A DNA stretch of 64,000 nt from a virus (taxonomy: Duplodnaviria > Caudoviricetes). The translations under genes and the position numbers were made by a program. The notes below the pieces were generated by a model, which saw nothing but the letters and a program-made list of their open reading frames with translations, was not told the origin of the DNA and ran no database searches. Of this stretch, positions 12,333 through 51,568 are shown in pieces. The DNA lies in the IMG/VR virus record IMGVR_UViG_3300025084_002866, positions 2,308 through 66,307 of that record. The stretch is one strand, 5' to 3'. The first letter of the stretch is position 1. The number at the start of each line of letters is the position of its first letter.

Positions 12333-12360
12333 TGTATTTGGTTTTAGTTAAACGTTGGTT

Positions 12361-12378
12361 ATTATATACTATCACTTG
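12361..12378 (-). promoter_or_regulatory. Candidate phage middle/late promoter CAAGTGATAGTATATAAT
   Basis: Related motifs lie upstream of other genes at 51552-51568, 61641-61655, 15131-15151 and 24178-24194. Confidence 0.4.
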
Positions 12379-12391
12379 ATAGTTCGGTTAT

Positions 12392-14263
12392 TTAAGCTTC
12401 TAATGCTTCAATTCTTGCGGTTAATTCTTTTATTGCTCCAACTAACGCTGGTATTACCTTAGTATAGTCAACCATTTGAGGGTCTATATCACCGTTAACA
12501 TCTAATGCGTCTTTGTCACCTATTACAGCATTTGGAAATTGCTCTTGCAATTCATGAGCTAAAAACCCTTCAACCACTGTTGCTTGTCCTATTATATTAT
12601 AATTTACAGGATTAAGAGCGTTTATCTTAACTGTAGAACCCTCTATTGAAGATACATTTTCTTTTAATCTGTAATCAGAAGCATTTGATAGTGACATACT
12701 TAAAGCAGAGGAATCTGAAAAAATATCTCCACATCTAAATGAACCTGGGCCACCTGAACTTCCACCGTAAAAAGTAATTAATCTAGAAGCATTTAATCCA
12801 CCTTGAGCATGAGAAGATCCTACCACTAAAGGCACAGATCCTGAAACAGTGCTTGGGTTAAATATATTTACAGCTCCTATAGAGGCGCTATAACTAGCTC
12901 CAGCAGTACCTACTATAGTGGCATTATTAGATGTAAAATAACCAGAAGGAAGCGTTGTTGAACTCGTTGAGTTTGTTAAAGAGCTATTTAAATATTTAAA
13001 TCCATTAGCTGTTTCGTAACCATCTTCACTAGCGTTTCCAAACATTATTGATCCTATTTCAACAGGATCATCAGAATTATTAGTACCACCATTACTTACG
13101 CCTAAGACTCCACTGACTCCATTAACCAGGTTTGTAGCAGGTATAGTTGACCATGAAGCTGTTGTACCATTAGAAGTTAAAACAGCGGTATTACTTCCTA
13201 TAGTTAAAGCTGAAGGAACACCATTTGCATCACCTAGCCATATCTTTCCTTGTTCCAAATTAGGTAAATCGTTTGTTCTACCTATACATGATACTTGTAA
13301 AGACCCATTAGCACCTGTTTTGTTTACTATAGCTACATTTTGTATAACATCTGTACCTATTGGCTTAGTACCTGTTAAATTTTCTGTAGTACCAGAGTTA
13401 TCAACATAAATAGGTTGACCTATAACTGGATTTGTTATATTATTAGTATTAAAGTCATCTAAAATACCAGTTACAATCATTTTACCTTCACCAGATGAAT
13501 AATCCGCTAGTGCTAGTCCAACCACTGGGTATTTTTCATTACCAGCTTGCTGTGCTGTTGCATCTGCTATTCCAACTGTTGGCCTACCGCTTCCATGAGC
13601 TGGACCTGAAATATATAAAGCATCTCCTTTAGCAACTGACACACTGTATTGCACGTCTTCTATTACAAAAGCGTCTGGAATAGTAACAGTAACTGCGTTG
13701 GTAGCTGCAGTAGCTGTAACTCCTGAACCTACAAAGTTTATAGAAGTAGCTGCTGCTGTAATATCTGTACCTTCATTTAATATAGCTAAGCTACTACCAC
13801 CTCCAGAAGGAGTGCCCCAAGTACCATCACCTTTTAAATAAGTTGTACCGCTACCTCCTGTTGGTACATGTCCAATATTATTTCCTCCAGAATAAGCTGC
13901 AGACGTTAAAACTGGTGCTGTAGTTGAATCGGCGATGGTTATAGCTGTGTTTGCCGATGTGACTGATGATATTCCTACTGGAGTAGCCCAATTACCTTGG
14001 TAATCTAAGAACTGACCAGCTGATCCACCTGTAGTGCCAAGCACGATGGTTCCAGAACTAGTGATAGGATTGTCACCTGTTACAGTAAATGCTGCAATAC
14101 CACTCAAGGATAACCCAACAGATGATACAGATCCGCCACCTGAGCTAGGTAAACTAGATACTTTCACTTGTTTAGTCTTATTACTATCTGCAGAGTCTGA
14201 TATAAGTATTAAATCACTACCTACTGGATTTGTTTTAGTTGGATATGTGTATATTATAGCCAT
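12392..14263 (-). CDS. Tail fibre with C-terminal intramolecular chaperone (peptidase S74)
   Basis: Gly/Ser/Thr-rich fibre repeats (YLKGDGTWGTP); SDYRLKENV...GFLAHELQE...VDY.KVIPALVGAIKEL..RIEALE C-terminus. Confidence 0.85.
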   Translation of the reverse strand: MAIIYTYPTKTNPVGSDLILISDSADSNKTKQVKVSSLPSSGGGSVSSVGLSLSGIAAFTVTGDNPITSSGTIVLGTTGGSAGQFLDYQGNWATPVGISSVTSANTAITIADSTTAPVLTSAAYSGGNNIGHVPTGGSGTTYLKGDGTWGTPSGGGSSLAILNEGTDITAAATSINFVGSGVTATAATNAVTVTIPDAFVIEDVQYSVSVAKGDALYISGPAHGSGRPTVGIADATAQQAGNEKYPVVGLALADYSSGEGKMIVTGILDDFNTNNITNPVIGQPIYVDNSGTTENLTGTKPIGTDVIQNVAIVNKTGANGSLQVSCIGRTNDLPNLEQGKIWLGDANGVPSALTIGSNTAVLTSNGTTASWSTIPATNLVNGVSGVLGVSNGGTNNSDDPVEIGSIMFGNASEDGYETANGFKYLNSSLTNSTSSTTLPSGYFTSNNATIVGTAGASYSASIGAVNIFNPSTVSGSVPLVVGSSHAQGGLNASRLITFYGGSSGGPGSFRCGDIFSDSSALSMSLSNASDYRLKENVSSIEGSTVKINALNPVNYNIIGQATVVEGFLAHELQEQFPNAVIGDKDALDVNGDIDPQMVDYTKVIPALVGAIKELTARIEALEA

Positions 14264-15151: not shown

Positions 15152-15295
15152 GAATTATTCATTTTTACTTATTGTTTATTGAAACAAAACTAAATAAATC
15201 TATATAATATATATGAATAAGAAAGATACAGTAAAGAAAATAACAGAGATAATATTGAATATACTTAAAATAATAAAGATGATTATTGAAATAGC

Positions 15296-15347: not shown

Positions 15348-15535
15348 TGTTTTATGTAACTATAAAAAGTATAGAAGTTAGGTACTGCACCCTCACAATA
15401 TAATTTTGTATTCCACAGTAAAATTGAATTTATATTTTAGGGCCCCCTGATGTTTTCAATACATTATTCCACGGTTTTACGTTTTCCCGATGCATTATTG
15501 TGTACCATCTACGTTTTCCATAACTACTTATCTTT

Positions 15536-15566
15536 CACCGACTAATTACGAGTTACATTGGATAAT
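15536..15566 (+). promoter_or_regulatory. Early repeat/promoter copy 1 (divergent)
   Basis: CACCGACTAATTACGA-GTTACATT-GGATAAT. Confidence 0.65.
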
Positions 15567-15604
15567 AATAGTATAAGATAAATAACAAACTAAATAAATA
15601 TAAT

Positions 15605-15673
15605 ATGATAACAGCTTTAATTTTTATACTAACTACATTGACAATAATAAATTCTTTAACTAAACATTTATAG
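15605..15673 (+). CDS. Possible hydrophobic micropeptide (22 aa)
   Basis: MITALIFILTTLTIINSLTKHL, between repeat copies 1 and 2. Confidence 0.3.
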   Translation: MITALIFILTTLTIINSLTKHL

Positions 15674-15740
15674 TAAATTGTGGAGAGGAGAAGTGTTGAA
15701 CTTCTAACTAATAATTAACTAACAAATAAAACTACACTTT

Positions 15741-15771
15741 TACAAACTAAATACGAACTAAAACGGATAAT
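15741..15771 (+). promoter_or_regulatory. Early repeat/promoter copy 2
   Basis: TACAAACTAAATACGA-ACTAAAAC-GGATAAT. Confidence 0.75.
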
Positions 15772-15814
15772 AATAATAACTAAACTAAATTAATAACAAA
15801 TAAATATAATAACT

Positions 15815-16051
15815 ATGAATAATAATAAAATAACTACTAAAAGATTTGTAATCAGAAAATCATTACTCGGTACTAATACAGTAATCACTTTCACTAACAA
15901 AAAAGATATAACATTCACTTATAATCACGATGAAATTTATACTAAGTTTCAAACTAAATTTGACGAGATGAATTGCTTTCAAAAGTACAAAAGTTATACA
16001 AATAGTAACACTGTTCCAAAATTCTGTAGAGAATTAAGTACTCAGTCTTAA
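15815..16051 (+). CDS. Early hypothetical protein
   Basis: 78-aa ORF downstream of repeat copy 2. Confidence 0.7.
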   Translation: MNNNKITTKRFVIRKSLLGTNTVITFTNKKDITFTYNHDEIYTKFQTKFDEMNCFQKYKSYTNSNTVPKFCRELSTQS

Positions 16052-16074
16052 AAACTAAAAGTCCAGTTAGTTCC

Positions 16075-16140
16075 ACTTGTTTTCTGGTAAATCAAATATG
16101 AACAAGTAAAGTCGATGTTGATAGTAATACTTTAACGACT
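16075..16140 (+). ncRNA. Candidate structured RNA (two adjacent hairpins)
   Basis: ACTTGTT(16075-81)/AACAAGT(16101-07) and AGTCG(16110-14)/CGACT(16136-40) with inner pairing, in an ORF-free gap. Confidence 0.35.
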
Positions 16141-16170
16141 ATAAATAACACGAACATATTACTCAGCACA

Positions 16171-16215
16171 TAACTGAAATGGTTGCAAGTGAGATTCGAT
16201 TTCTCACTCAGTTAC
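16171..16215 (+). ncRNA. tRNA-like minihelix (acceptor stem plus T arm only)
   Basis: TAACTGA-AATGGTTGCAA-GTGAGA-TTCGATT-TCTCAC-TCAGTTA-C; no D or anticodon arm. Confidence 0.5.
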
Positions 16216-16243
16216 AAACAAACTACGATAGTCGTAGGATAAT
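16213..16243 (+). promoter_or_regulatory. Early repeat/promoter copy 3
   Basis: TACAAACAAACTACGA-TAGTCGTA-GGATAAT. Confidence 0.7.
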
Positions 16244-16270
16244 AATATAAACTAATAAAAATAAATAACT

Positions 16271-16465
16271 ATGTATAATCCAAACTCTCCTTCAAACTGG
16301 TCTTGGTCAAAAGCTTTCGACGAAATGAATAACTCAATAAATAAAGCTGAACTTGAACAGCAAATAATAAATCACTTAAGTAATTACTCAGGTAATCCAA
16401 AGTGGATTGAATTAACTAAAGATCAACAAGAAGATCATTATGAAATCTTAATACAAATACTATGA
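16271..16465 (+). CDS. Early hypothetical protein
   Basis: 64-aa ORF after repeat copy 3. Confidence 0.65.
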   Translation: MYNPNSPSNWSWSKAFDEMNNSINKAELEQQIINHLSNYSGNPKWIELTKDQQEDHYEILIQIL

Positions 16466-16605
16466 CTAAAAACTTAAATACTACAATTGACAAAATAGCT
16501 TTATCAGAATTTGCTATACACTACTATCAGTTAGGTGATAACGAGAAAATGTGGTGTCACGACGAGATGATTAATAATGATAAATACTTAAAACTAAATA
16601 TATGA
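16462..16605 (+). CDS. Early hypothetical protein (47 aa)
   Basis: Read from sequence: MTKNLNTTIDKIALSEFAIHYYQLGDNEKMWCHDEMINNDKYLKLNI; ATGA overlaps at both ends. Confidence 0.6.
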   Translation: MTKNLNTTIDKIALSEFAIHYYQLGDNEKMWCHDEMINNDKYLKLNI

Positions 16606-16844
16606 ATAAAATAATACTAACAATCGGAATGGCTAGTTCTTTACTAGTATCACCAACAAAAAAAGATAGTACAATAATTGACTCAGTAGAACTAAGTGAA
16701 GCTATAAATAACATTCAAGATATGAAAGAGTGGATGCAGAGTGATATAGATAAAGACAATATAATTACAGATTTAGGTGAATTTTATATTGAAAATCTTA
16801 ATGAAGTTGAAGATATGTTAATTAAACTTTCTAATACAAACTGA
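16602..16844 (+). CDS. Early hypothetical protein with signal-peptide-like N-terminus
   Basis: MNKIILTIGMASSLLVS then acidic helix; its TGA stop lies inside repeat copy 4. Confidence 0.65.
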   Translation: MNKIILTIGMASSLLVSPTKKDSTIIDSVELSEAINNIQDMKEWMQSDIDKDNIITDLGEFYIENLNEVEDMLIKLSNTN

Positions 16845-16865
16845 ATACGATACTAACTGGATAAT
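16835..16865 (+). promoter_or_regulatory. Early repeat/promoter copy 4
   Basis: TACAAACTGAATACGA-TACTAACT-GGATAAT. Confidence 0.75.
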
Positions 16866-16885
16866 AATAATATAAAATAAACAAT

Positions 16886-17104
16886 ATGAATATAGAACAA
16901 CATAAATCTAAACTAAATAAAAAATACAATCAAGCGATTGTCGATAAAGTACTAAACACTATGTGGACTAAACTAGGTAATGAGTTAGACAATATAATGA
17001 TGGAATCAGGTGATTACTCTGAAACTAATAATGAAATGTTTGACGATCAGGATCACTACATGGGAATTATTTGTAACACTATGAAACTACAATGTGATGA
17101 GTGA
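16886..17104 (+). CDS. Early hypothetical protein
   Basis: 72-aa ORF after repeat copy 4. Confidence 0.65.
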   Translation: MNIEQHKSKLNKKYNQAIVDKVLNTMWTKLGNELDNIMMESGDYSETNNEMFDDQDHYMGIICNTMKLQCDE

Positions 17105-17255
17105 TTTATATGAATTTGAAATATACTATGGTGAGATAGAAGAACCACTGTATTTAACTAACGATAAAAACTATATTTGTGATGAAATGAGAGATTTCAT
17201 GGAAGAATTAGGAATAGAATTAAATGAAGTAATATATAAAGTAAAATCAATATGA
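17097..17255 (+). CDS. Early acidic hypothetical protein (52 aa)
   Basis: Read from sequence: MSDLYEFEIYYGEIEEPLYLTNDKNYICDEMRDFMEELGIELNEVIYKVKSI. Confidence 0.6.
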   Translation: MSDLYEFEIYYGEIEEPLYLTNDKNYICDEMRDFMEELGIELNEVIYKVKSI

Positions 17256-17392
17256 AAATAGAAAAAGTAATGCCAAGTGTTATGGCTATATTAATAATAA
17301 CATTACTAGCACTCGCGACATCGTGTACTACAACAGGTAAACTAGCAGTAAATCAAGATAGTTATTACAAATTCTGTCCAGGCTGTAACTAA
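17252..17392 (+). CDS. Small lipoprotein (46 aa)
   Basis: Read from sequence: MKIEKVMPSVMAILIITLLALATSC-TTTGKLAVNQDSYYKFCPGCN; lipobox-like LATSC. Confidence 0.65.
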   Translation: MKIEKVMPSVMAILIITLLALATSCTTTGKLAVNQDSYYKFCPGCN

Positions 17393-17395
17393 AAT

Positions 17396-17575
17396 ATGAA
17401 AATGATAAATAGAAATAAAGAGTGGGATCATGCAGAAGACGAGAAGTCTTTACTAGCCACAGTAGGAATAGTAGTCAGAGAACTCACTATAAAGTGTCCT
17501 AATGACCAAGAACTTGGTAAAGAAGTAAGAGAACTAATACAAAAATACAAACTAAATACGAACACTAATGGATAA
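17396..17575 (+). CDS. Early hypothetical protein (59 aa)
   Basis: Read from sequence: MKMINRNKEWDHAEDEK...PNDQELGKEVRELIQKYKLNTNTNG; the C-terminus is encoded by repeat copy 5. Confidence 0.6.
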   Translation: MKMINRNKEWDHAEDEKSLLATVGIVVRELTIKCPNDQELGKEVRELIQKYKLNTNTNG

Positions 17576-17576
17576 T
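17546..17576 (+). promoter_or_regulatory. Early repeat/promoter copy 5
   Basis: TACAAACTAAATACGA-ACACTAAT-GGATAAT; ATG 7 nt after GATAAT. Confidence 0.8.
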
Positions 17577-17582
17577 AATAAT

Positions 17583-17726
17583 ATGAAAACAATCAAATTT
17601 TACAATAGCAATAGAGCACTCATCAAGTTAGATGGCAAGTTCTACAGAGGTTTAACTATAAATAATATACCAGACGACTATACAAGCTGGTTTAACTACA
17701 AAGGTCTTACTTACATAACAAGTTGA
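17583..17726 (+). CDS. Early hypothetical protein (47 aa), possibly leaderless
   Basis: Read from sequence: MKTIKFYNSNRALIKLDGKFYRGLTINNIPDDYTSWFNYKGLTYITS. Confidence 0.65.
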   Translation: MKTIKFYNSNRALIKLDGKFYRGLTINNIPDDYTSWFNYKGLTYITS

Positions 17727-17736
17727 CAAACAACTG

Positions 17737-17847
17737 ACGAATAAGCATTGTTAACGGGCATGAGTGTGATGCTGTAACTCGACCCAAAAACATACGAGCG
17801 TTAACAAGCTATAGCTCATACCTTAACCAGTATGGGCTTTTCGTGGT
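17737..17847 (+). ncRNA. Three-way-junction RNA/attenuator candidate, copy 1
   Basis: ACGAA-TAA-[TTGTTAACG...CGTTAACAA stem]-GCTCATAC-loop-GTATGGGC-TTTTCGTGGT, then ATG at 17848. Confidence 0.6.
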
Positions 17848-18288
17848 ATGAAATGTAACCACAATATTCCACAAGCAAGATTAGATCTTGGTTATACTGA
17901 GTGTGTTGATTGCTCAACAGTAGAAAAACTCGGTTGTATCGATACTATTCATCACAAAACAGGCAATACTATTCAAGTAATGTCACGTGAAGATGCAGAC
18001 AAAGCTAGTAAGCTCACTCAAAGAGCAGGCTTTGGCATACTAAGATCTATGACTGGTGGTTCAAGTCAACGTAAATCTAAAATAATACATGGTTGCTCAA
18101 CTACTCAAATCGGTAGTCAAGAAATGTACGAGCGCATAGGTGAAACTTACATGAATTATTATGAAGTTGACAAAGAAATTGCAAAGCGCTTTCTCGATCG
18201 AGCGCTAGACAACGCAGAAGTATCTCAATTACAATACCAAAAGATACAAATGATTTGTCACAAACTAAATACGATCACTATTGGATAA
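17848..18288 (+). CDS. Zn-finger protein with TraR/DksA-like N-terminus
   Basis: C.HNIPQARLDLGYTECVDC resembles the C..IP..RL.....C..C finger, with the first Cys pair incomplete. Confidence 0.55.
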   Translation: MKCNHNIPQARLDLGYTECVDCSTVEKLGCIDTIHHKTGNTIQVMSREDADKASKLTQRAGFGILRSMTGGSSQRKSKIIHGCSTTQIGSQEMYERIGETYMNYYEVDKEIAKRFLDRALDNAEVSQLQYQKIQMICHKLNTITIG

Positions 18289-18289
18289 T
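18259..18289 (+). promoter_or_regulatory. Early repeat/promoter copy 6
   Basis: CACAAACTAAATACGA-TCACTATT-GGATAAT. Confidence 0.8.
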
Positions 18290-18304
18290 ATATATAAATA
18301 ATAT

Positions 18305-18463
18305 ATGAACAAAATAACAAAACAACTCGAAAACTTGTACTCTTGGACAAAATTCTATCAAGATCGAGGTAATAAAGAAGCAATTAGAAAGTGTCAAACT
18401 GAAATAGCCCAGTTGAAAATGGCTTTTAACCAACTAAAATCTAACAAAAATGGCAAAAAGTAG
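18305..18463 (+). CDS. Early hypothetical protein (52 aa)
   Basis: Read from sequence: MNKITKQLENLYSWTKFYQDRGNKEAIRKCQTEIAQLKMAFNQLKSNKNGKK. Confidence 0.6.
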   Translation: MNKITKQLENLYSWTKFYQDRGNKEAIRKCQTEIAQLKMAFNQLKSNKNGKK

Positions 18464-18818
18464 AACGCTAAACGAAATTAGGCAATCAAAAGAGTATCAA
18501 CAAGCTGTTGAACTAAGTGATCAAGGCGGTAAATACACTGTACCAAGTAAAGGCGCAGATCCTGTACCTGTTAAAAATCCTTTTGAACATGAAATGGTAG
18601 GTAAAGCTGTTGAAAATATAGTAGCAAAGCTAACATCTGGTGAAATATTTGATTTAATATTTCAAGCAGTTTCTGATGAAATGAGTGAACACTACGTGTT
18701 TGACTCATCAGAATACTTAACTGAAGCAGGTTTAGAGCTATTTGAAGATGAATGGTTTGAATTCTATCAAGAACACCATGGAGATATATTGTATCAAGTA
18801 ATGCAAAACTTAAAATAA
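18450..18818 (+). CDS. Early hypothetical protein, acidic C-terminal half
   Basis: 122-aa ORF. Confidence 0.65.
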   Translation: MAKSRTLNEIRQSKEYQQAVELSDQGGKYTVPSKGADPVPVKNPFEHEMVGKAVENIVAKLTSGEIFDLIFQAVSDEMSEHYVFDSSEYLTEAGLELFEDEWFEFYQEHHGDILYQVMQNLK

Positions 18819-19015
18819 TGAAGAAATTTAACGGAATGGAGTCAAAACTTATAATTGACGCGCTTAACTACTATGTAGCACAAGTAGAAGAAGATATATT
18901 AGAAGCAGCAAAAGATGGTAAAATATCAATATTTGCACCTGGTTTTTATACTAATGTATCAAAAGAGTTAATAGATAAAGTAAAATCTATGACTAAAAAA
19001 CAAATTACAAACTAA
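18818..19015 (+). CDS. Early hypothetical protein
   Basis: 65 aa; its TAA stop lies inside repeat copy 7. Confidence 0.65.
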   Translation: MKKFNGMESKLIIDALNYYVAQVEEDILEAAKDGKISIFAPGFYTNVSKELIDKVKSMTKKQITN

Positions 19016-19036
19016 ATACGAACACTATAGGATAAT
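19006..19036 (+). promoter_or_regulatory. Early repeat/promoter copy 7
   Basis: TACAAACTAAATACGA-ACACTATA-GGATAAT; ATG 7 nt after GATAAT. Confidence 0.8.
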
Positions 19037-19042
19037 ATAAAT

Positions 19043-19261
19043 ATGATATACGACGATTTAAAACCACATATCAAAGCCAAAATGAAAGAAAATGCTAAAG
19101 AGTATAAATCTATCAACTGGTTATTTGATAAACTAAAACAAAAAGACTATTACTCTGACTTAACTATCGAAGAAATAAGATCTATCTGTACATTTGGTGA
19201 TGTATGGTATCACGATCTTACTCAAAGAGACATTATATGGGGTGATTGGTTAACAAAATAA
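19043..19261 (+). CDS. Early hypothetical protein, possibly leaderless
   Basis: 72-aa ORF starting at the predicted +1 of repeat copy 7. Confidence 0.65.
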   Translation: MIYDDLKPHIKAKMKENAKEYKSINWLFDKLKQKDYYSDLTIEEIRSICTFGDVWYHDLTQRDIIWGDWLTK

Positions 19262-19267
19262 ATAAAT

Positions 19268-19618
19268 ATGAACGAAGAAAAACTAGCAATAGAAACATTA
19301 AAAGCACTAGGTGCTAAAGATACATCAAGTCCATCTCAAACAAAAAGAGGTACAACTTGCTTTACATTACCAACAGGTAGATGTATATCTGAACACAAGT
19401 CAGGTTACATAAGAGTAAATTTACTAAACAAAAAAGGCAGTATTTACACCTGTTATCAGCTAAATCCACAATATAAAACTCCTTATAAAATGATTTGGCA
19501 AGATGGTAAGCTACACGAAGGCACTCATAATAGAAGAATGCTAATTTATAACAGAGCTGAAAGACTAAAAAGACTTGTATTATATGCAATTAAAGATATA
19601 AATCAAGCAAATGGATAA
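19268..19618 (+). CDS. Early hypothetical protein (basic)
   Basis: 116-aa ORF. Confidence 0.65.
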   Translation: MNEEKLAIETLKALGAKDTSSPSQTKRGTTCFTLPTGRCISEHKSGYIRVNLLNKKGSIYTCYQLNPQYKTPYKMIWQDGKLHEGTHNRRMLIYNRAERLKRLVLYAIKDINQANG

Positions 19619-19721
19619 AGAAAAAAAAGAACAAATCACTGATACAGTGTGGTTTATAGTAGCCCTTCTCGCCATAGGGCTGCTACAAATCTTAGCAATA
19701 TATGGCGTATTTGTAAAATAA
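19611..19721 (+). CDS. Small membrane protein (36 aa)
   Basis: Read from sequence: MDKEKKEQITDTVWFIVALLAIGLLQILAIYGVFVK. Confidence 0.55.
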   Translation: MDKEKKEQITDTVWFIVALLAIGLLQILAIYGVFVK

Positions 19722-19729
19722 ACTAAATT

Positions 19730-20167
19730 ATGATACTAACTGAAGAAAAAATGATTAAAATAGCTAAGAAATCTCTTGGCTTAACACTAACCGAAGATTT
19801 TAACGGTGCAGACATCTACTGCTATAATGAATCTACTGTAGATGGCTATGATGTATTTGTATTAACTCACGACACTACAAATATAAATATATGTGAAAAT
19901 ATATATTACTATGACTCTGACCTAGCATCTGCTATCATGGAAGAAATACAATACAACGGTGGTAGCGAAACAGTATTACACATAGATAGTTATCTATGGG
20001 ATGACATCTACATGGATGATCAAATGCTTGAATATTTCGGTGAAACTATAGACAGCATTATTGAAGATAATGATGAAGAAGGTTATGGCTTAACACCAGC
20101 TGAAGTACAAGAATTAAAAGAAGAATATGGCTTAGATGCCGAAGAAATTGAAGAAACTGTTAGTTAG
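19730..20167 (+). CDS. Highly acidic early protein (DNA-mimic candidate)
   Basis: 37 Asp/Glu against 5 Lys and 0 Arg in 145 aa. Confidence 0.7.
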   Translation: MILTEEKMIKIAKKSLGLTLTEDFNGADIYCYNESTVDGYDVFVLTHDTTNINICENIYYYDSDLASAIMEEIQYNGGSETVLHIDSYLWDDIYMDDQMLEYFGETIDSIIEDNDEEGYGLTPAEVQELKEEYGLDAEEIEETVS

Positions 20168-20185
20168 TTAATAGTAGTTTAGTTT

Positions 20186-20273
20186 CCACGAATAACGTGA
20201 AAAGTGTTCAGCAAATGCTAGAAACTTATTCACATGTCACGCTCGTACTCACAAGGTACGGGCTTTTCGTGGT
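20186..20273 (+). ncRNA. Three-way-junction RNA/attenuator candidate, copy 2
   Basis: CCACGAA-TAA-[variable stem]-GCTCGTAC-loop-GTACGGGC-TTTTCGTGGT, then ATG at 20274. Confidence 0.6.
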
Positions 20274-20474
20274 ATGAGAACATTTGAAAAATATAAACAA
20301 AACCTAAGACAACATGGTAATGAGATATGGTCTTATTCTACTCATGTTGCAACTATAATATACGATAAAGACTACCATAAATCACACCTAAAACAACTTG
20401 GCTGGTGGTCTGTTACTACACAGAAACACATTAACTACGCTGCTAAAGAACTAAACTTAGAACTAGTTAAATAA
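20274..20474 (+). CDS. Hypothetical phage protein (WSYSTHVATI motif)
   Basis: 66 aa; SY.T.VA...G.WS.TT.KH pattern seen in small phage proteins. Confidence 0.65.
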   Translation: MRTFEKYKQNLRQHGNEIWSYSTHVATIIYDKDYHKSHLKQLGWWSVTTQKHINYAAKELNLELVK

Positions 20475-20475
20475 T

Positions 20476-20488
20476 TACAAACTAAATA
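20476..20488 (+). repeat. Truncated early repeat (5' half only)
   Basis: TACAAACTAAATA without CGA-N8-GGATAAT. Confidence 0.5.
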
Positions 20489-20500
20489 AAAATTATAACT

Positions 20501-20656
20501 ATGAAATACCTTTATCAAGAACTAGATGAGTTGTTGCAAGCGCTTAAATACTCAGATGAAGATGAGTTAGATGATCTACGTGATGATCTATACTTTGAAG
20601 ACATTTTAGAAATATGTAAAGAAATTACAGAATATATACCAGAAATTACAAACTAA
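20501..20656 (+). CDS. Small acidic protein (51 aa)
   Basis: Read from sequence: MKYLYQELDELLQALKYSDEDELDDLRDDLYFEDILEICKEITEYIPEITN; stop lies inside repeat copy 8. Confidence 0.65.
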   Translation: MKYLYQELDELLQALKYSDEDELDDLRDDLYFEDILEICKEITEYIPEITN

Positions 20657-20677
20657 ATACGATAACTAACGGATAAT
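20647..20677 (+). promoter_or_regulatory. Early repeat/promoter copy 8
   Basis: TACAAACTAAATACGA-TAACTAAC-GGATAAT; ATG 7 nt after GATAAT. Confidence 0.8.
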
Positions 20678-20683
20678 ATTAAT

Positions 20684-20989
20684 ATGACTGAAGACGAAAT
20701 ACAAAGATTAGCTGACTTAATATTCGATAGAATGATGGAGAAGCAAGAAAGACTAGATCAAGATTATTATGATCAAGTTAAAAAGCTACATGAAAATGGC
20801 TATGTAATCAGCGAAGCTAGTGATAGCTCAGGTTTAAACGACGAAGAAAAATTAGTCGGTGAACTAGCTAGATTACAAACTATGATGATGATACTAGAAG
20901 ATAAAGAAGAATACGAAAAAGCAGCAGTAATACAAAAGAAAATACAAGTAATAAATAAAAAACTAAATGACGGAACAGGAAAATATTAA
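20684..20989 (+). CDS. Hypothetical protein with C-terminal UVR-like coiled coil
   Basis: LEDKEEYEKAAVIQKKI resembles the UvrB/UvrC motif (E.YE.AA.I...I). Confidence 0.6.
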   Translation: MTEDEIQRLADLIFDRMMEKQERLDQDYYDQVKKLHENGYVISEASDSSGLNDEEKLVGELARLQTMMMILEDKEEYEKAAVIQKKIQVINKKLNDGTGKY

Positions 20990-22808: not shown

Positions 22809-23422
22809 ACCGTAACTTAACATATCTAAATAATAATAGGATAGTGTACCGTAAGTACTCTTCAGACAATCCAACAGCGAGTTACGACTGGGGTTGGTAT
22901 TATGCTGATGGTACTTATGGGTATTACTCATTGTTTAATACCAAGGCTAAAATTAATAGTTACAAGTCATTAAAATGGCATCTATTAACTTTATGGTATT
23001 TAAATCCTAAATTAACAATGGATGAGTTTAGAAATTTATCTGAGTATATATGTTATGAAAACAATTGCTTTATAACTTTCGAAGTTCCTGAACAGATATT
23101 AAACAATATGATTTATGAAGTCTATATGGAAGATCTTGATCAACCACCTAAAAATAGATTACGTAAAATAGTATTTAAAGATGGTACTGGTTTAAGTACT
23201 AGTGAGAAACTAAGTATTGTAGGTACTATAGCTGGTAAAGGTAAAAGTGTTAATGAAGACGATATTTACGATGCAATGCTATACACGCATGAGCAAGGTA
23301 AAATTACAATTAATAAATTAGCTAAGCTTTTAAATTGCACAGCTAGAACAATACATAGAAACATGGGTGAAGAACTTAAAAGAGAAAAAGAGTTATTAAA
23401 TAGACAACATGAAAAAATATAA
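22802..23422 (+). CDS. DNA-binding protein with C-terminal HTH (possible replication initiator or regulator)
   Basis: ITINKLAKLLNCTARTIHRNM is a helix-turn-helix. Confidence 0.65.
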   Translation: MSHRNLTYLNNNRIVYRKYSSDNPTASYDWGWYYADGTYGYYSLFNTKAKINSYKSLKWHLLTLWYLNPKLTMDEFRNLSEYICYENNCFITFEVPEQILNNMIYEVYMEDLDQPPKNRLRKIVFKDGTGLSTSEKLSIVGTIAGKGKSVNEDDIYDAMLYTHEQGKITINKLAKLLNCTARTIHRNMGEELKREKELLNRQHEKI

Positions 23423-24164
23423 TGTAAAAAACTACGTAAGGTACAAGGAAGATATTAAAATATCTATTGAGAATATAAAAAGTAAAAGATTTATTGATTA
23501 TACTCCAAGAGAACTTAAAATAATATTTTTACCTTTAGTAGAGAATATAGCTAGGAAGTTTGCAACTTCACAAGAAGCGTCGGGTGTTATGTCTATTAAT
23601 GATATAATACAAGAAGGTAGCTTACAACTTTGTAAAGCTGTAGATAAAATAGATAGAACAAGGTTAATAGAGTCTGAAGACATTGAAAAGACTTTAAAAT
23701 CTTTTTTAGCTAAAAGAATACGTGGTGGAATACGTAGAGAGATAGATAGAAACAGAGGTACAATGCGCATACCTGAACACAAGCTAAATGAAATGCGTAA
23801 AGATGGAGGTAAAGATAAAAAGATGGTTGCTATGTTTTTTAATAGCATATTCTTAAGTATCGATGCTAATCCATCAGATGAGAATATGGTTTATCAAATA
23901 CCTGATAAATCAGATCCTTACAATGAAATACTGCTTAATGCTTATATATTAAGTTTGTTAAACAAACATTTAACTTCTGATGAAGTATTTGTTTTAAACA
24001 AGAGCTATGGCCTTGATGGTAAGAAATGGTCTGCTAATGATATAGCAGCAGGTTTAGAGATTAAAGGTGTGTCTGCATACGTAAGAGTATCAGAGCTAAA
24101 AAAGCAAGCAGTAAACAAGTTAATAGATAATGTAGATCACTCGCAAGTGCTTGATTATCTGTAA
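23409..24164 (+). CDS. Phage RNA polymerase sigma-70-family factor
   Basis: Region 2 (LVENIARKF...DIIQEG..L.KAVDK.D...RIRGGI..EI....TMRIPEH) and region 4 (LT..E..VL..SYGL...VRVSELK..A..KL). Confidence 0.85.
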   Translation: MKKYNVKNYVRYKEDIKISIENIKSKRFIDYTPRELKIIFLPLVENIARKFATSQEASGVMSINDIIQEGSLQLCKAVDKIDRTRLIESEDIEKTLKSFLAKRIRGGIRREIDRNRGTMRIPEHKLNEMRKDGGKDKKMVAMFFNSIFLSIDANPSDENMVYQIPDKSDPYNEILLNAYILSLLNKHLTSDEVFVLNKSYGLDGKKWSANDIAAGLEIKGVSAYVRVSELKKQAVNKLIDNVDHSQVLDYL

Positions 24165-32662: not shown

Positions 32663-35600
32663 CTATCTAATTACTATTTTCTTTTTACCACTTTTAGCTT
32701 TAACTCCGGATCTTATTTTTATTTTTCTAGATTTAGGAGGTTGTATTTTTTCTTGATTTTTAATTTGCCAAGCTGGCCAACCTAATAATAAAGCTACAGC
32801 TTGCCAAGCTTCCGTATCAGCTTCAGCCGCGGCTTTTAAATTTTCTACTTTTCTATACATTCTATCTAAAGGAAAGTTTGTTGTAGCTGTTATAACTTTA
32901 GCTGCAGATTCATAAGCTGGATTATCTAAGCTAAATCCTTTTTCAAACACTTCTTCTTTTCGCTTTTTACTATCAAATGGATATGCAGCACTTTGAAACC
33001 TAGTTAATTTACTTTTTATTGAAGGTGAAAAATCTAACAATTTCTTATAAGCTTCTGAGTATTCAGGATTATCTTTTTTAGATCTATCATATATATCTAT
33101 ACCTAAATTCTTTATTACTTGCAGTGTTACTCCACCTAGTCCTAAGCCTCTTAGTTGAGAATCAATCATTCCATTAGCTACTTTAAATAACTTCTTATCC
33201 TTATCCTTATCACTTGCTTCTATTTGTTTAGTTGACATTTCGCTTTCATCGTCTCCAAAGCCTAATGCAAAAGCACCTTGCTGCAACCCATTAAACATCA
33301 TATTTTGTAAAAAACCGTAATAAGCTATTCTAGAAACTCTAATCCTGTTACTTTCAGCTAAAGTTTTGCCAGGTATTCTTCTTTTATTAGCAATGTCTTG
33401 AATATCTCTTTTTTGCATACGAGCATACTGCATAGGAGTATTAACGTATTGAAGAATAACCCTACCTAAATCAGTTGACTGTTGTTGGGATATTTTACTA
33501 GGATCAGAAGATTGCTGAGATAATTCAGAAACGTCTCTCCATTCTTTCATTGCTATTTCCTCAGCTTCTTTTTCTGTTTTGCCTTCTTTCTTGATTAGAT
33601 CTTTAATTCTATTTCTGTAAAACAAAGCTCCTCCAGAAGCTATAGCAAAGCTATCAGCATACTTAGTTGGTGCGTATCCTTTTTCTAAAATATAGTTTAA
33701 AGCTGCTTTTGCTTTGTTCTTAGAGGTTTTAGCTGCGTCAGCTATTTCAGATTCGTTTATATTAAGCTTAAGCCCATTACGTCTATCTTTTAAATAGTCT
33801 GAATTTATTAGCTTTGTAAAATCTTTCCAATATTGAGGTTGATTTGCAAATGCTGCACCTGCTTTAGCTGGGTTGTTAAAACTCCAATTAATGTAATTAG
33901 CAGAAGATATTGTTTGCAATAAAGCTGATCTTGTATTTAAAAACATTGTAACTGCTGTAGAGTTGTTTATGTAATCTAAAACATCATTACTTAATTTATT
34001 TCCACCTGAAACTCTATTGCTACCAGAATTCATTCTAGTTAAAGAGTTTTCCAAAGCTAACCTATATTTTTTACCATAAGCAGCTTCTAACTTATTTAAA
34101 TTATCTTTAGAAAATATAAGATCTTTGTTTTGATTAAAATCTTGTAAATACTTACTTCTTTTATCTGTATTTAATAAATCCATTAAATCAGTGGTTATAG
34201 TTCCTACAGCCCAGTTTTTACCAGGTTTAGAGTAACCGTCACCTTTTGTTATACTTAAAATTTGATCTGCAAAAGCTTGTAGTTTTGGGCTTTCAGATAC
34301 TATATCATTTAACTCTTTTAAATCTGTTTTAGAAATACCAGGTATTTCTTGACCTGTTTTGTTCCAAAGATACGTTCTTACAGCTTGCTCATTTGTAAAC
34401 CCTGACTCTGTTTTAAGTCTTAAGTCTTTAGGAACATCTAGCTGCTTTTTTAAAGCTTTAAAATCATCCATTAGATTAACTCTGTCAGTAGATAGATTTT
34501 CCATAGCTCTACTATATGGATTTAATAAATTGTCTTGGTAAAACTTCATGTGAGCCTCTCCCTTTTTACCTTTTCCTAGAGTAGTATATAATAAACCAGT
34601 GAAATCTTCAGCAGATGGAGGTATAAAAAACTTTTGTTTTCTTGCTTTATTACCTCTAATTTCTGCTTTTATATCAGAAAAAACTTTTTCAGCTCCAATT
34701 CCTGTAGATTCTTCTATGTTTTTATTAAACTCAGCTGATAAGTCTTGAGAAGCATATGCTTGTTGAGTTTTTGATTTAACATCTAAAACTTCTAAAGCGT
34801 CTCTAACTGCTTTAACATTTTGAGGCGCATCATCTGCAAAGTAAAAATCATTATAACCTTCAGCTGCTTTGTTAACTAGCCAATCAGCTTTAGCCTCACC
34901 TGTAGAATTACCTAATCCAGTTATATTTTCTAAAGGTATTTCAATACCCATAACATCTAAAAACTCTTTAATAGCTGGAGCAGATTCAGGAGCTCTAGCA
35001 GTTAATATAAACATATCTCTATCGCCTGCTGATTCTTTAATCTTTTTCATCAGTTCAAACAAAGGTCCTTTCTTACCTTCAACAACTCTATTAAAGTCGG
35101 AAAAATCCATTTTCCAACCAGCATCAACTAGCCCCTTGCCTTGCTTAGCAAATTCTTCAGCTGTTAAAACTTTTCTTTCACCATCTTTTTCAGCGAAAAC
35201 TTTACTATTTGTTCTAGCAACTGTATCATCAAAGTCAAATACTCTAGCTTTTTTCACTGTCTTGTTTCTAACTCTAGCATTAGATATAGCTTTGTCCCTA
35301 GTCTTCAATGTATTTACAACTTGAGTTTGATTTAAATCTTTACTAGACATAGAAGCTTCTTTAAGAACTTCTACATTATTTTTAACTACCTCTGTTCTAG
35401 GATATTCTATTTGTTGTTCTACTTCTACTTTTGCTTTACTTGGTGGAAATTTAGTAAGAATATTTTCAGCTTCTTTTTTACCATATCTTTTTAATAATAT
35501 TTTAGCAATTGTATTTACATTTTTACCAGAAAAATCACGTAAAGATAAAGTTCTTGAAGGAGATCCTGGATTCAAAAAAGTAGTTAATAATTCGTCATTA

Positions 35601-38600
35601 ATTATAGGATCTATTGAACCACCAGTTCCTCCGTATTTAGGATCATCCTTTACTGCTCTATCAGCATCAGAAGTTAAAGATTGTGAAACACTATTGGTAA
35701 TATTTTCTAGTTCTTTCATGAACTTTTTATTTCCAATTTTATTTTTAGATTTTAAAAGTAAATTAACAAATTCTGTATTATATATAAATAAGTCTTTATT
35801 ATGCTCATTATGAAATCTTTTACCTCCAGGTCTTGTAGCTTCTCCAATTAAAGATAGATACTCCATAGGTGCAAGACCTTTAATTATACCTGTGGCTTGA
35901 CCTGTTTGTATTTGAAGAAAAGTTATTATATCTTCTAATGTTTCTTTTGTAGGGCTTTCTTTATAAACTTCTGATAGTTTTTCGTAAGTATACTTTATAG
36001 CTTCTCTATTAGCATCCATAGTTCTTTCATAAGCATCAGGTAATAATTTACCATTAGCATCCACTAATTTAGGATTGCTTAATTGATCTCTACCAAAAGA
36101 AGTTAAATAACTTTTATACTGCTCTCCTTGAGAAGATTCCCAAAGAGGAAACCTAACCTTAGCAGCTTCAATTTCTTTTTCCCATTTTTTCTTAAAACCT
36201 GTTTCGCTATAGTTAACCATGAAAACATCATCCATAAAATCTAGTCTTTCACCTTTGCTTTCAATTTTACCAAACACATCTTTAAATTCAGCTATACCAA
36301 AGTATTCAGCATCTCCTTTTTTTCCTTTATATTTTTTAAGACCAAAAGTTTTCAACGAACCTTCTCCAAAAGTATTTCTTACATACTTTGAAAAATTATC
36401 ATTTTCTAATAATTCAGGAAACTTTTTAAGAATTTTATTAAAACTTTTTATAGTTCTATCTCTATTTTCTGCACTAGTTACGTTTTTACTTCTAGTACCA
36501 GGGGCTATTGGTTGTAAATCTTTAAAGCCAGATAGCTTTCTTAAACCAGGTAATGCTTTGCTCCATCTAGATATGCTTAGCTCTTCTTCTTTTTCTATTT
36601 CTTCAAGAGTCATGTCCTCTCGTCTAGCTTGTTTCTCTCTTTCAATTTTTATTTTTGGATCAACTACAAATTTTTGCAAGTGGCTAACTACAGCTTTCTT
36701 TTGTTCGTCAGTAGTAGTAAGAGACAATTTAGTAATAAAGTCACTAGCGTTTCTTTGAGCAGCTAGAGCTTTAATATCTTTTGGTGTTAATTTTTCTCCT
36801 GAATTTAATTTCTCAACTACTTCTTCTAAAAAATCTACATCGTTTAAACTCATGGAAGCTAAGTTTTCAGACTTACCAGATTTTAAATCTTCTATTTCGT
36901 TAGCTGTTAATTCTTTTATTTTTCTTATCTGAGCGTTAGTTACAGCTTTTCCATCTTGATGTATTAATGCTTTTATTCTTTGATCAATCTTTCCGTTTTC
37001 TTTTAAAGTTTCAAAAGAACCATCTTCTTTTATACCAAAATATTCTAGAAATTTACTTCTATTAAATGGTAGTTTTTCTTGACCTTTTAATCCTGCTCCT
37101 GTACTTACCCTATCTCCTTGTTTGTAAAAAGCGTCTAATAAAACTTTTTGAACGCCAGTAGAAGTTTCTTTTAAAGATTCTTTAGCTGTCTTAGTGGTTT
37201 TACCATCAGGTAAAAGTTGATAAAGCATTTCAGCATTATCTACAATATACTGTTGAGCGGAAGTCACTTCTTTCTGAGATAATCTAGTTGAGGTTTTACC
37301 TTTAAAAGTTCCATCTTCATTATTAATTTTACCGTCTTTAACTCCAAAATCTTTACTTATGTTAGATAAGTCAGGAGTTGTTTTATAACTTTCTATAATT
37401 AAATTTGAATCTTCAATTCTATTATCTAAAAGCCTAGCTGATGCTTCTGGCTCTTGCAACACTGTGGTAACATCAAGTTTTCCTGTAGCTGGATCAATAA
37501 ATTTTTCCGGTATAGAACTAACGTCTCCACTGGTACTAAAAGTTTGATCAACAAGATTTTCTAAACCTCCTGATTCTCCGTCCCCTAAGTCTGACTCACT
37601 AATCTCTCTATCAAATGATCCTACTTTTTTTAATGTATTTACAACCTGTTTTGTGAATCCCATGTTTAAATAAGCGCCAACATCGTTTTTATTAGCGTCG
37701 TATCTCTCAGCGTATTCATAGAGTTTTAATTGTAATTCAAAAGCAGCTTCTTCTTTTATATCTTTTGACAATTTAAATCCAGTAATTGTTTCATATTTAT
37801 TTAATGAATTATATATTAAATTTTTATTATTGTCAACTATTTGATCTCTTTGTTTTCTATTCGGTTTACCGTCTGGATTTTTAAGTATTTCAGCTCTTAA
37901 TTTTCTATTATCTTCAACTATTTCTTTTGTAGTTTTCTTAACTACTGTACCTTCTAAATCTAAAGAAGATTTAATTTCTTTTTCAATATTAGCTTTATCA
38001 GCTTTTCTATTAGCTTCTGCATTACTTAAGTTATCTATATCAACATCTGGAATACTTTTTTTATCGGTAAAACCCATAAGCTCAGATACAAGACTTTCAG
38101 CTCCTCCTTGTCCTCTAATTCCTTTCCTAGATAATATACCTATATTTTCAACTACATCTTTAGCTGTTTTAGGTAATGGACTTTTTACTCCAGTTTGAAT
38201 TAATATGTCTTTAATTTCTAACTTTATTTCATTTAAAAGACTAGAAGCCAAGGCAGGATTTGTATAATAAGCTTCTGGACTACTTAAATACTCACCCATA
38301 AAAGATAAATATTCTTCTGCTAATAATTTTTTACCTTCTGGAGCGTTTGTATTTATATTATATTTATCTATAATTCTTTGTTCTAATTCTTTACCACTAA
38401 ACTCTCCAAACTGGTAATCATAAAATTGAGACATACCGTCTTTTGCTAAATTTTCAAGCGCTGCTGGATTTTTTTTATAGTACTCTTTTTGAAGTAAATG
38501 AGTTAACTCATGTATTTCTTTTCCTGGCGTATAAAGATCCATGTCTATAGTTATAGTGTTTGTATTAGGATCAAACTCAGCAGTAGATTTACTTTTTCTA

Positions 38601-51553: not shown

Positions 51554-51568
51554 AATTATAATCACTTG
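51552..51568 (-). promoter_or_regulatory. Candidate late promoter CAAGTGATTATAATTAA
   Basis: Shares CAAGTGAT..TATA with 12361-12378. Confidence 0.4.

Follow-up and report, generated by a model that had tools for sequence, protein, structure and literature searches.

In most phages the host holoenzyme directly reads the promoters needed at time zero, and phage sigma factors usually serve middle or late genes; phiEco32, 7-11, SPO1 and T4 each use a sigma factor for middle/late genes and have early promoters of the host type. The early and middle promoters of T4 follow an extended sigma-70 consensus, with a MotA box at -30 and sigma appropriation, and its middle promoters depend on the early products MotA and AsiA and exist alongside a distinct host-type early class. 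Transcription-assisted DNA entry is known for T7 and N4. To our knowledge, the takeover of transcription by phages of marine Bacteroidota is almost unexplored. The early promoters of N4 are DNA hairpins with a 5-7 bp stem and a 3-nt loop (PMC4496689). In the Cellulophaga phage phi14:2, a virion RNA polymerase (RNAP) transcribes the early genes, for which no common motif was found, and two promoters used by the host RNAP, P070 and P075, read CTTGAC...TATATTTG and CTTGCA...TACTTTTG (preprint 10.1101/2020.03.07.982082). Both fit the host consensus TTG-N20-TAnnTTTG, of which the TAnnTTTG element lies at -12 to -5 in Flavobacterium (PMC9723704).

We analyzed a 64,000-nt stretch of DNA (the window) from a lytic, podovirus-like marine phage whose host belongs to the Flavobacteriaceae. 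A first-pass annotation had described eight copies of a promoter-like repeat on one strand, and a search of the window with YACAAACTAAATACGA-N8-GGATAAT reproduced all eight plus-strand positions with 0-3 mismatches (Table 1), while 100 dinucleotide-preserving shuffles gave 0 matches, the number expected by chance being 0. The whole 66,307-bp phage record contains these eight forward copies and none beyond them, with 0 in reverse orientation and 0 in controls. The copies sit at gene junctions and extend over the 3' ends of the ORFs before them; the ORF behind the last one is followed by a ligase, an HTH protein, the sigma gene and replication genes, with no more copies between. The half copy noted earlier was likewise borne out, although it is probably not a working promoter of the same geometry, and two further half copies were found, one listed in Table 1 and one at ~15184.

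Table 1. Coordinates of the repeats and of the two candidate reader proteins, numbered from the first nucleotide of the window.
Feature	Coordinates	Strand	Comment
Promoter copy 1, degenerate (3 mismatches)	15536..15573	+	predicted +1 = A15573; next ORF a 22-aa peptide, ATG 15605
Promoter copy 2, exact	15741..15778	+	predicted +1 = 15778; ORF 15815-16051
Promoter copy 3, 2 mismatches	16213..16250	+	predicted +1 = 16250; ORF 16271-16465
Promoter copy 4, 1 mismatch	16835..16872	+	predicted +1 = 16872; ORF 16886-17104
Promoter copy 5, exact	17546..17583	+	predicted +1 = A of ATG 17583 (leaderless); ORF 17583-17726
Promoter copy 6, exact	18259..18296	+	predicted +1 = 18296; ORF 18305-18463
Promoter copy 7, exact	19006..19043	+	predicted +1 = A of ATG 19043 (leaderless); ORF 19043-19261
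Promoter copy 8, exact	20647..20684	+	predicted +1 = A of ATG 20684 (leaderless); ORF 20684-20989
Half copy	20476..20503	+	upstream block ACAAACTAAATAA fused directly to TATAAC + ATG; without CGA-N8-GGATAAT
Second half copy (ACAAACTAAATAAATATAATATG)	15585..15607	+	immediately 5' of the 22-aa ORF
Phage sigma, 251 aa, regions 2, 3, 4	23409..24164	+	candidate motif reader; downstream of all eight copies
Sigma region-2-like segment in 2995-aa virion protein (32663-41650)	37625..37850	-	candidate time-zero factor

Across public phage contigs the full element is TT-ACAAACTAAATACGA-N7-T-GGATAAT-ATAAAT-R. It begins with a -35-like block (ACAAACT, -36 to -30), followed by a second conserved block (AAATACGA, -29 to -22). 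After a stretch that lacks conservation come T-G at -14/-13 and the -10 box, which is 8 nt long and invariant (GATAATAT, -12 to -5), then an A/T-rich discriminator and, 7 nt past GATAAT, a pyrimidine-purine start. The 17-nt distance between CAAACT (positions 1-6) and GATAAT (positions 24-29), read earlier as a sigma-70-like geometry, is constant in every copy and in the variant types A-D described below. The -10 box has the A-11 and T-7 of sigma-70-family promoters, GATAAT being essentially invariant in the 430 copies that match the search pattern with at most 3 mismatches. Pairwise identity among the window copies is 96% in the two conserved blocks as against 38% in the 8-nt spacer between them and 33% in the upstream flank, and the blocks are therefore under selection rather than recently duplicated or gene-converted. 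In copy 4, CTAAAT is changed to CTGAAT, and the stop codon of the upstream ORF thereby stays TGA. The motif lacks symmetry, matches no Rfam family and has no secondary structure in the six copies folded (MFE 0 to -1.7 kcal/mol, z 0.3 to 1.0); the spacer of copy 3 forms a hairpin that is peculiar to that copy.

The predicted start of transcription could be assessed across the whole family, in which we found 672 distinct motif copies in 189 loci of public phage contigs. The base 7 nt past GATAAT (position 36) is a purine in 657/672 copies (A 433, G 224, T 15, C 0), and position 35 is a pyrimidine in 538/672. Where position 36 carries an ATG, an ORF of 30 codons or more begins there in 163 of 165 cases, and the same is true of all 23 ATGs at position 38; of the 135 ATGs at position 34, 2 nt before position 36, only 6 open such an ORF (median ORF, 1 codon). 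Motif and start codon are 0 to 45 nt apart, and the lower end of this range is a sharp one-nucleotide boundary, as is characteristic of a transcription start. These statistics support the earlier proposal that transcription starts at the purine 7 nt past GATAAT, with start codons piling up exactly there and hardly any before it. As had been claimed for copies 5, 7 and 8, the ATG lies exactly 7 nt past the last T of GATAAT, and because the start point is supported family-wide, so is the reading of their predicted mRNAs as leaderless. By the same reckoning, about 26% of the family's motif copies would yield leaderless mRNAs starting at AUG, an unusually high share compared with the 5.5% reported for Flavobacterium psychrophilum (PMC9723704).

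We compared the motif with known promoter classes. Only A-11 and T-7 are common to the -10 box and TAnnTTTG, an agreement at 2/6 of the positions that the host -7 box specifies. The TTG (TTTG) at about -33, 19-20 nt 5' of the -7 box, is absent from the motif in that register. With both box and TTG mismatched, the earlier statement that the motif is not of the Bacteroidota housekeeping type TTG/TAnnTTTG (PMC9723704) stands, and since the host is a member of the Flavobacteriaceae, the proviso that a non-Bacteroidota housekeeping sigma might read the motif falls away. Matches to TTG-N17-21-TAnnTTTG within the window occur at chance level, solely in antisense or intragenic positions and with no sensible placement. 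The host-type pattern is found at 1.5-2.6 times the control level in three candidate host genomes and is not enriched in the phage genomes; conversely, the proximal half of the motif is not in excess in those three host genomes. From its sequence, the phage appears to be without any host-type promoter. ECF sigma promoters, for which we required a GGAAC-like -35 and, 16-17 nt further on, a CGT-type -10, are not matched, the -10 here being GATAAT and CGA lying only 6 nt past AAC. The sigma-28/FliA consensus is TAAA-N15-GCCGATAA; in the motif, TAAA (positions 6-9) lies 11 nt from the GATAA-containing octamer, 4 too short, and the phage sigma scores far under the FliA cut-offs.

Related phages carry variants of the element. 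In types B, C and D, which were detected de novo, GATAAT(AT), the spacing and T-1/R+1 are retained, but the upstream halves differ, being uniform inside each genome and lineage-specific across related phages. Type D has GGACTT at -35 and retains GATAAT, with GATACT in its place in a few copies. The CGA described earlier as conserved at about -24 is present in most lineages and absent from type D. Among 53 loci anchored on the sigma gene, all motif matches but five lie on the gene strand upstream of sigma; in total, 71 loci carry a sigma homologue, and the motif or a variant precedes the gene in nearly all that have enough upstream DNA. At one of them (L185), the ATG of the sigma gene falls exactly on the +1 of a motif copy. 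Conversely, two relatives, MW202828.1 and the elemo phage, have neither a Sigma70_r2 match nor GATAAT repeats. In MW202828.1, 11 hairpin repeats occupy the equivalent region. The lineage-specific variants and the co-occurrence with a phage sigma both favour the phage-specific promoter class that had been proposed.

A model of the phage sigma matches sigma-A and sigma-S chains over regions 2-4, with a fold like those of primary and stationary-phase sigmas, and its region 2 aligns with RpoD as far as RIPxH of region 3.0. Region 2.4 is invariant between lineages, like the -10 box. Types A, B and D share one and the same region 4 recognition helix (SAYVRVSELKKQAV) despite their different -35-like blocks, so that region 4 cannot account for the lineage-specific upstream halves. 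We found no protein that varies in step with the type of upstream half.

Judged from sequence, the eight elements are almost certainly promoters of a kind that the host sigma is not known to read. We put at roughly 80% the probability of the fuller reading that they are sigma-70-family-type promoters of non-host specificity, with the phage sigma as their likeliest reader, driving a rightward early/middle block. Under this model the repeats would drive the presumed early and the middle genes from 15.5 to 32.4 kb; a sigma-70-family factor of non-host specificity would read the -10 box, and host core RNAP would initiate at the purine 7 nt past GATAAT, giving a leaderless mRNA where this purine is the A of an ATG. 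The primary-sigma-like protein of the phage is the strongest single candidate for reading the -10 box, at somewhat less than even odds, and the lineage-specific upstream half may be the site of a further, fast-evolving phage regulator. As the sigma gene lies under the same promoters, its expression would amplify itself after a weak start. No other promoter type was found upstream of the sigma gene, which means that its product would be missing at time zero, except if it is packaged or if weak recognition by the host bootstraps its synthesis. The late genes, 49 kb in leftward orientation, have no GATAAT-type site in front of them and would lack an assigned reader if sigma reads the early promoters.

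The time-zero problem would disappear if the host holoenzyme (sigma-A) read the elements from the outset. A fast-evolving regulator of the phage would then use the lineage-specific upstream half (-36 to -22) as its operator or activator site, to silence or strengthen early transcription later on, and the phage sigma would serve late genes. We consider this tentative and on the unlikely side. Divergence of operator and regulator would explain elements that are genome-uniform, lineage-variable and nested in one sigma clade, and the failure of sigma region 4 to track the upstream half is in keeping with it; the -10 box does keep the A-11 and T-7 of TAnnTTTG, and in vitro the T7 A1 promoter is reportedly active with the RNAP of Cellulophaga baltica (preprint 10.1101/2020.03.07.982082). 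However, the box matches the host at only 2/6 positions and there is no TTG at -33, whereas the phi14:2 promoters that depend on host RNAP do fit the host consensus. The proximal half is not in excess in the three candidate host genomes, and no regulator co-varying with the upstream half was found.

The time-zero problem could also be solved without host sigma-A if a virion-delivered factor read the elements. One candidate is the giant ejected protein, whose sigma region-2-like module would attach to the -10 box and to host core RNAP. Transcription-assisted DNA entry would be well served by eight promoters that point the same way from one end of a gene block, and two relatives have weak Pfam Sigma70_r2 matches within their giant proteins (G009, E 5.6e-4; G010, E 0.06), which have PHIRNF...GWINS(E/Q)L in common. 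This reading is nevertheless improbable: conservation of the giant protein among relatives is limited to the C-terminal 700-900 residues, no homologue of the segment in the window could be detected in five complete relatives, G010 with its identical motif among them, and the domain sequences are strongly divergent between two phages with the same promoter. No sigma-4-like HTH follows the domain, and the giant protein shows no conserved DxDxD motif suggesting a hidden RNA polymerase. We give equally little credence to the broader proposal that the phage imports its own specificity factor, either this module or packaged phage sigma, and so redirects host core RNAP at time zero to promoters that sigma-A cannot read, the upstream halves forming an addressing code; if true, this would be the first injected sigma, and the code would bar related co-infecting phages from each other's early promoters. 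That the elements are not promoters at all, and instead sequence-specific RNA processing sites, replication/partition iterons or repressor operators, is very improbable. Their position over 3' ends of ORFs at gene junctions would suit such roles, and RNA processing could likewise give defined 5' ends, but the bipartite layout with a fixed-length unconserved spacer and sigma-70 geometry, the lack of symmetry and of RNA or DNA structure, the scatter of copies over 5 kb at gene starts, the one-nucleotide hard lower bound on a start-codon distance of 0 to 45 nt and the pyrimidine-purine signature at position 36 all point to promoters.

The finding concerns an abundant, uncultured ocean phage of flavobacteria, and its family turns up very frequently in ocean metagenomes. 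More than 120 IMG/VR stretches carry an exact motif match among the matches listed, a lower bound; more than 8000 candidate sigma homologues, all those listed, fall under the E-value cut-off, and 261 IMG/VR stretches encode relatives of the family's GroEL. The analysis yields an exact model of the 38-nt promoter that predicts its start nucleotide, natural specificity variants and a shortlist of candidate readers, all directly testable in vitro, and the promoters could become orthogonal expression parts for Bacteroidota.

Phage-specific promoters are an already known kind, of which the present motif is a new variant. Like the middle promoters of phi14:2 (preprint 10.1101/2020.03.07.982082), it is a repeated motif in a Flavobacteriaceae phage with a multisubunit RNAP as the enzyme, but unlike in P070 and P075, GATAATAT occupies the -12 to -5 register and there is no TTG. 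N4 offers a parallel: a podovirus with a giant virion protein, it too has several identical, co-directional promoters at the early end of its genome, which are needed at time zero and are read by its virion RNAP (PMC4496689). Unlike the N4 promoters, the motif here is unstructured and does not have an N4-type hairpin, and the giant protein yielded no polymerase signature of the T7-like or two-barrel kind. T4 promoters, as generally known, are likewise conserved well past the two hexamers, with a block replacing or overlapping the -35 upstream of a TATAAT-like -10; unlike in T4, a separate host-type early class was not identified, and among several genes of the block that were scanned against PHROG and Pfam, none was named as a MotA or AsiA homologue. 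The promoters served by phage sigmas, namely phiEco32 gp36, that of phage 7-11, SPO1 gp28 and T4 gp55, also form multi-copy phage-specific consensus sequences unlike the host housekeeping one (PMC8948821, PMC12276001), and those systems too combine a phage-encoded sigma-70-family protein with transcription by host core RNAP. In contrast to them, the present phage infects a Bacteroidota host and has no detectable host-type promoter, and its sole repeated promoter class precedes the earliest genes and the sigma gene itself.

The eight plus-strand copies of the motif listed by the first-pass annotation, and no extra ones, were recovered from the window when up to three mismatches were allowed, and 100 dinucleotide-preserving shuffles of the sequence gave no match. 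The complete IMG/VR record of this phage (66,307 bp, completeness rating 100%, of which the window is bases 2308-66307) likewise holds 8 forward copies, none in reverse and none in controls. All eight window copies have an A 7 nt after GATAAT; in copies 5, 7 and 8, as had been proposed, this A is also the first base of the following ORF's ATG. Pairwise identity among the copies is 96% in the conserved blocks versus 38% in the 8-nt spacer and 33% in the upstream flank, so the blocks are under selection and do not reflect recent duplication or gene conversion. The genes that carry the repeats appear from gene order to be early. A near-identity DNA search of a cultured-phage collection with the motif region gave no matches, and the motif string was found in none of the papers searched.

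An exact-pattern scan of IMG/VR located the motif in at least 120 stretches, and 672 distinct copies (≤3 mismatches) were gathered from 189 loci, with the phage sigma and GroEL serving as anchors. The full element calculated across copies is TT-ACAAACTAAATACGA-N7-T-GGATAAT-A-T-A-A-A-T-R, with conservation extending to positions left unconstrained by the search pattern. At position 36, the predicted +1 that lies 7 nt 3' of GATAAT, A is found 433 times, G 224 times, T 15 times and C never, and 538 of the 672 copies have a pyrimidine at position 35. Across 53 sigma-anchored loci, all matches but five are located 5' of sigma on the gene strand, and close relatives possess one additional copy approximately 4.35 kb 3' of the start of sigma. 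An N4-like hairpin promoter or RNA element was rejected, as the motif is unstructured and matched no Rfam family.

With a transcription start at position 36, start codons should be found from that base onward and none ahead of it. Among the 165 copies with an ATG at position 36, 163 have an ORF of 30 codons or more opening there (median 77 codons), as do all 23 with an ATG at position 38, versus 6 of the 135 with one at position 34, where the median ORF is one codon. The position-34 ATG, 2 nt ahead of the predicted start, is mostly part of ATGTAA and so meets an immediate stop; this hexamer is frequent among copies with G at position 36. The variable distance to the ATG, combined with a hard lower bound accurate to one nucleotide, excludes a role in translation, and judged from sequence this bound is the expected signature of a transcription start. 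We place the probability that these elements are promoters at roughly 0.8 to 0.85. From the start-codon counts, approximately 26% of the promoters (163/626) would yield leaderless mRNAs and additional ones leaders of just 2-4 nt, the remaining predicted leaders being 10-45 nt.

In Flavobacterium, the sigma-A promoter consists of TAnnTTTG at -12 to -5 with a TTG near -33, and 5.5% of mRNAs are leaderless (PMC9723704). The middle promoters of Cellulophaga phage phi14:2 are read by the host RNAP (preprint 10.1101/2020.03.07.982082) and, as read off the record, are of the host type, CTTGAC-N-TATATTTG and CTTGCA-N-TACTTTTG. The pattern TTG-N19-TAnnTTTG occurs at 1.5-2.6 times control in three candidate host genomes and is not enriched in the phage of the window or in one relative. 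Within the window, a relaxed host pattern is found at chance level, with sites only antisense or inside genes, and TAnnTTTG by itself occurs about as often as expected by chance. The phage box GATAATAT, in the identical -12 to -5 register, has only A-11 and T-7 in common with TAnnTTTG. These results uphold the earlier assertion that the motif is not of the host type and suggest that the phage is without any host-type promoter.

Judged by terminase and primase, the nearest relatives in culture infect Flavobacterium, Cellulophaga, Tenacibaculum and Maribacter, and exact copies of the motif sit on three chromosomal contigs from Flavobacteriales MAGs. In two of these genomes (G002 and G003) a copy lies 5' of a small signal-peptide gene that is truncated or interrupted there, the intact version of the protein family being 115 aa. 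As this gene is broken, rare (2 of 201 genomes of the host family) and has phage homologues (30-33% identity), the chromosomal copies appear to be remnants of DNA that came from phages; they add support to the host assignment, and were rejected as evidence that the host reads the motif. A host regulon was also rejected, as three candidate host genomes contain the motif's proximal half no more often than its control. In G001, the third genome, the copy is located ~100 nt 5' of a TerB-domain gene, beside 21-nt tandem repeats and near recG and parAB. A contig binned in a Rhodopirellula MAG (L125), which is probably phage, has a motif copy directly adjoining the 3' end of a tRNA-like sequence.

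In relatives that lack the exact motif, variants with other upstream halves (types B, C and D, known from one to three genomes each) occupy the same place. All types share GATAAT(AT), the spacing and T-1/R+1; the upstream half is lineage-specific and uniform over the 5-11 copies of each genome. Types B, C and D and the A2 forms intermingle within a single clade of the sigma tree, so the upstream half has undergone repeated, rapid switching. No covariation of the upstream half was seen with sigma region 4 or with the HTH protein adjoining sigma. The two best-covered type D phages, whose upstream half is CACGGACTT, carry an additional ECF-like sigma that was found in none of the other loci examined.

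As reader of the motif we tentatively favour the 251-aa phage sigma, at somewhat less than even odds. This protein has a Sigma70_r2 match, its region 2 aligns to RpoD as far as RIPxH of region 3.0, and its AlphaFold model (pLDDT 78.6) matches sigma-A and sigma-S chains over ~250-290 alignment columns, which makes it a three-domain sigma, expected to use a -35/-10 geometry. Nearly every sigma-anchored locus that extends far enough upstream carries the motif or a variant, and neither a Sigma70_r2 match nor GATAAT repeats occur in the elemo phage or in MW202828.1, whose terminase is 65% identical. Sigma region 2.4 is invariant (K102, R103, G106, R109, R110), like the -10 box, and an arginine at the place of sigma-70 T440 could fit the invariant G at -12. 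At one locus (L185) the sigma ATG falls exactly on the predicted +1 of a motif copy; the mRNA for this sigma would itself be leaderless and come from that promoter class. Against the phage sigma, its gene lies downstream of the promoters with no other promoter type upstream, the region-4 recognition helix is identical across types A, B and D, and late genes are preceded by no GATAAT-type site. A tblastn search of the cultured-phage collection with the phage sigma gave no matches, and when distant relatives without sigma were sought with GroEL as the anchor, only close relatives emerged.

Reading by the host holoenzyme with a phage regulator bound to the upstream half would settle the timing problem and account for the quick divergence of that half, as operators and regulators diverge; however, the motif does not match the host consensus and a co-varying regulator was looked for and not found, leaving this explanation rather unlikely. 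A factor delivered with the virion is suggested by weak Sigma70_r2 signals in the giant virion proteins of two relatives (G009 and G010), which have the motif PHIRNF...GWINS(E/Q)L in common. We consider this improbable, as the giant protein is conserved only in its C-terminal 700-900 residues, no sigma-4 domain follows the sigma-2-like segment, no polymerase signature is conserved, and a homologue of the window protein's candidate sigma-2 segment was not detectable in any of five complete relatives, one of which carries the identical motif. The giant protein was also rejected as a hidden RNA polymerase: its sole family match is a weak one to a PHROG polynucleotide kinase, and PDB sequence matches and a conserved DxDxD motif were both absent.

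Other candidate regulatory elements were observed. The third half copy in the window overlaps the top E. coli-type promoter match of the region (TTGAAA-18-TATAAT, 11/12). Three direct repeats in the 420-nt divergent intergenic region, immediately 5' of copy 1, may represent either iterons or a promoter region directed leftward; the gene adjoining this intergenic region is not conserved. Both copies of GGGCTTTTCGTGGTATG supply the ATG of the next gene, which has no motif copy of its own, and both terminate a GC-rich structured non-coding stretch, the second of which has a terminator-like hairpin. A conserved element 5' of the GroES-GroEL pair, found in 22 of 58 distinct GroEL-anchored loci, contains the palindrome CTATCAagTGATAG directly before TATAAT. 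A similar sequence occurs elsewhere in the window (2 sites observed versus 0.11 expected), and the element may serve as a late or middle promoter that includes an operator. A late-promoter search gave the candidate CAAGTGAT...TATAAT, with 2 occurrences on the late strand. In MW202828.1, which has a 3859-aa giant protein and no sigma, the equivalent early region contains perfect palindromes or hairpins, each ~15-25 nt 5' of a small gene, that resemble the hairpin promoters of the N4 virion RNAP.

Features and motif variants in the window, related phages and Flavobacteriales chromosomes
Feature	Position	Orientation	Details
Tail fibres and GroEL	window, 15114 down to window start	leftward	LamG, S74 domains
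GroES-GroEL upstream element	window 12340-12397	-	AACCGAACTATCAAGTGATAGTATATAATAACCAACG
Third half copy	window 15184-15215		ACAAAACTAAATAA-N-TATATAAT-ATAT-ATG, then 30-aa ORF
Direct repeats	window 15449-15519		(A/T)A(T/C)GTTTTC(C/A), spaced ~30 nt
Rightward block	window, 15.5 to 32.4 kb	rightward	opens with small ORFs interleaved with repeats; later ligase, HTH protein, sigma factor, Erf, exonuclease, primase-helicase; further, thymidylate-synthase-like enzyme, MazG, ribonucleotide reductase
GGGCTTTTCGTGGTATG	window 17834-17850 and 20260-20276
Terminator-like hairpin	window 20241-20263
Structural block	window end down to 32663	leftward	2995-aa protein, portal, large terminase
CAAGTGATTATAAT	window 51555-51568	-	related to GroES-GroEL palindrome
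Type A, milder forms			several
Type B			ATATAAGTTTGAYACGA-N9-GATAATATAnnTGAA
Type C			TCGAAAnnTAATACnA-N9-GATAATAT
Type D			CACGGACTT-N16-GATAATAT; some copies with GATACT
Exact motif, Flavobacteriales chromosomal loci	L139 (G001); L141 and L144 (G002); L140 (G003)
Additional ECF-like sigma	L217:7847-8440; L207:7985-8509		197 aa; 174 aa; Sigma70_r2 E 2e-13
Sigma ATG on predicted +1	L185:9965-10003
tRNA-like 3' end beside motif	L125:1290-1390		GGTTCGAATCC...
Hairpins of MW202828.1	L121:43733-49891		11 copies, CGGTGTCGTTAACGACAC(A/C)A

The phage group described here is very abundant but uncultured. Phage sigmas and repeated phage-specific promoters are well known from phiEco32, SPO1, T4, T7 and N4. 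Unusual here are a TATAAT-like -10 box instead of TAnnTTTG in a phage of Bacteroidota, the lack of a detectable host-type promoter, a sigma gene under a promoter class shared with the earliest genes, modular upstream halves that are quick to switch, and a large proportion of predicted leaderless mRNAs.
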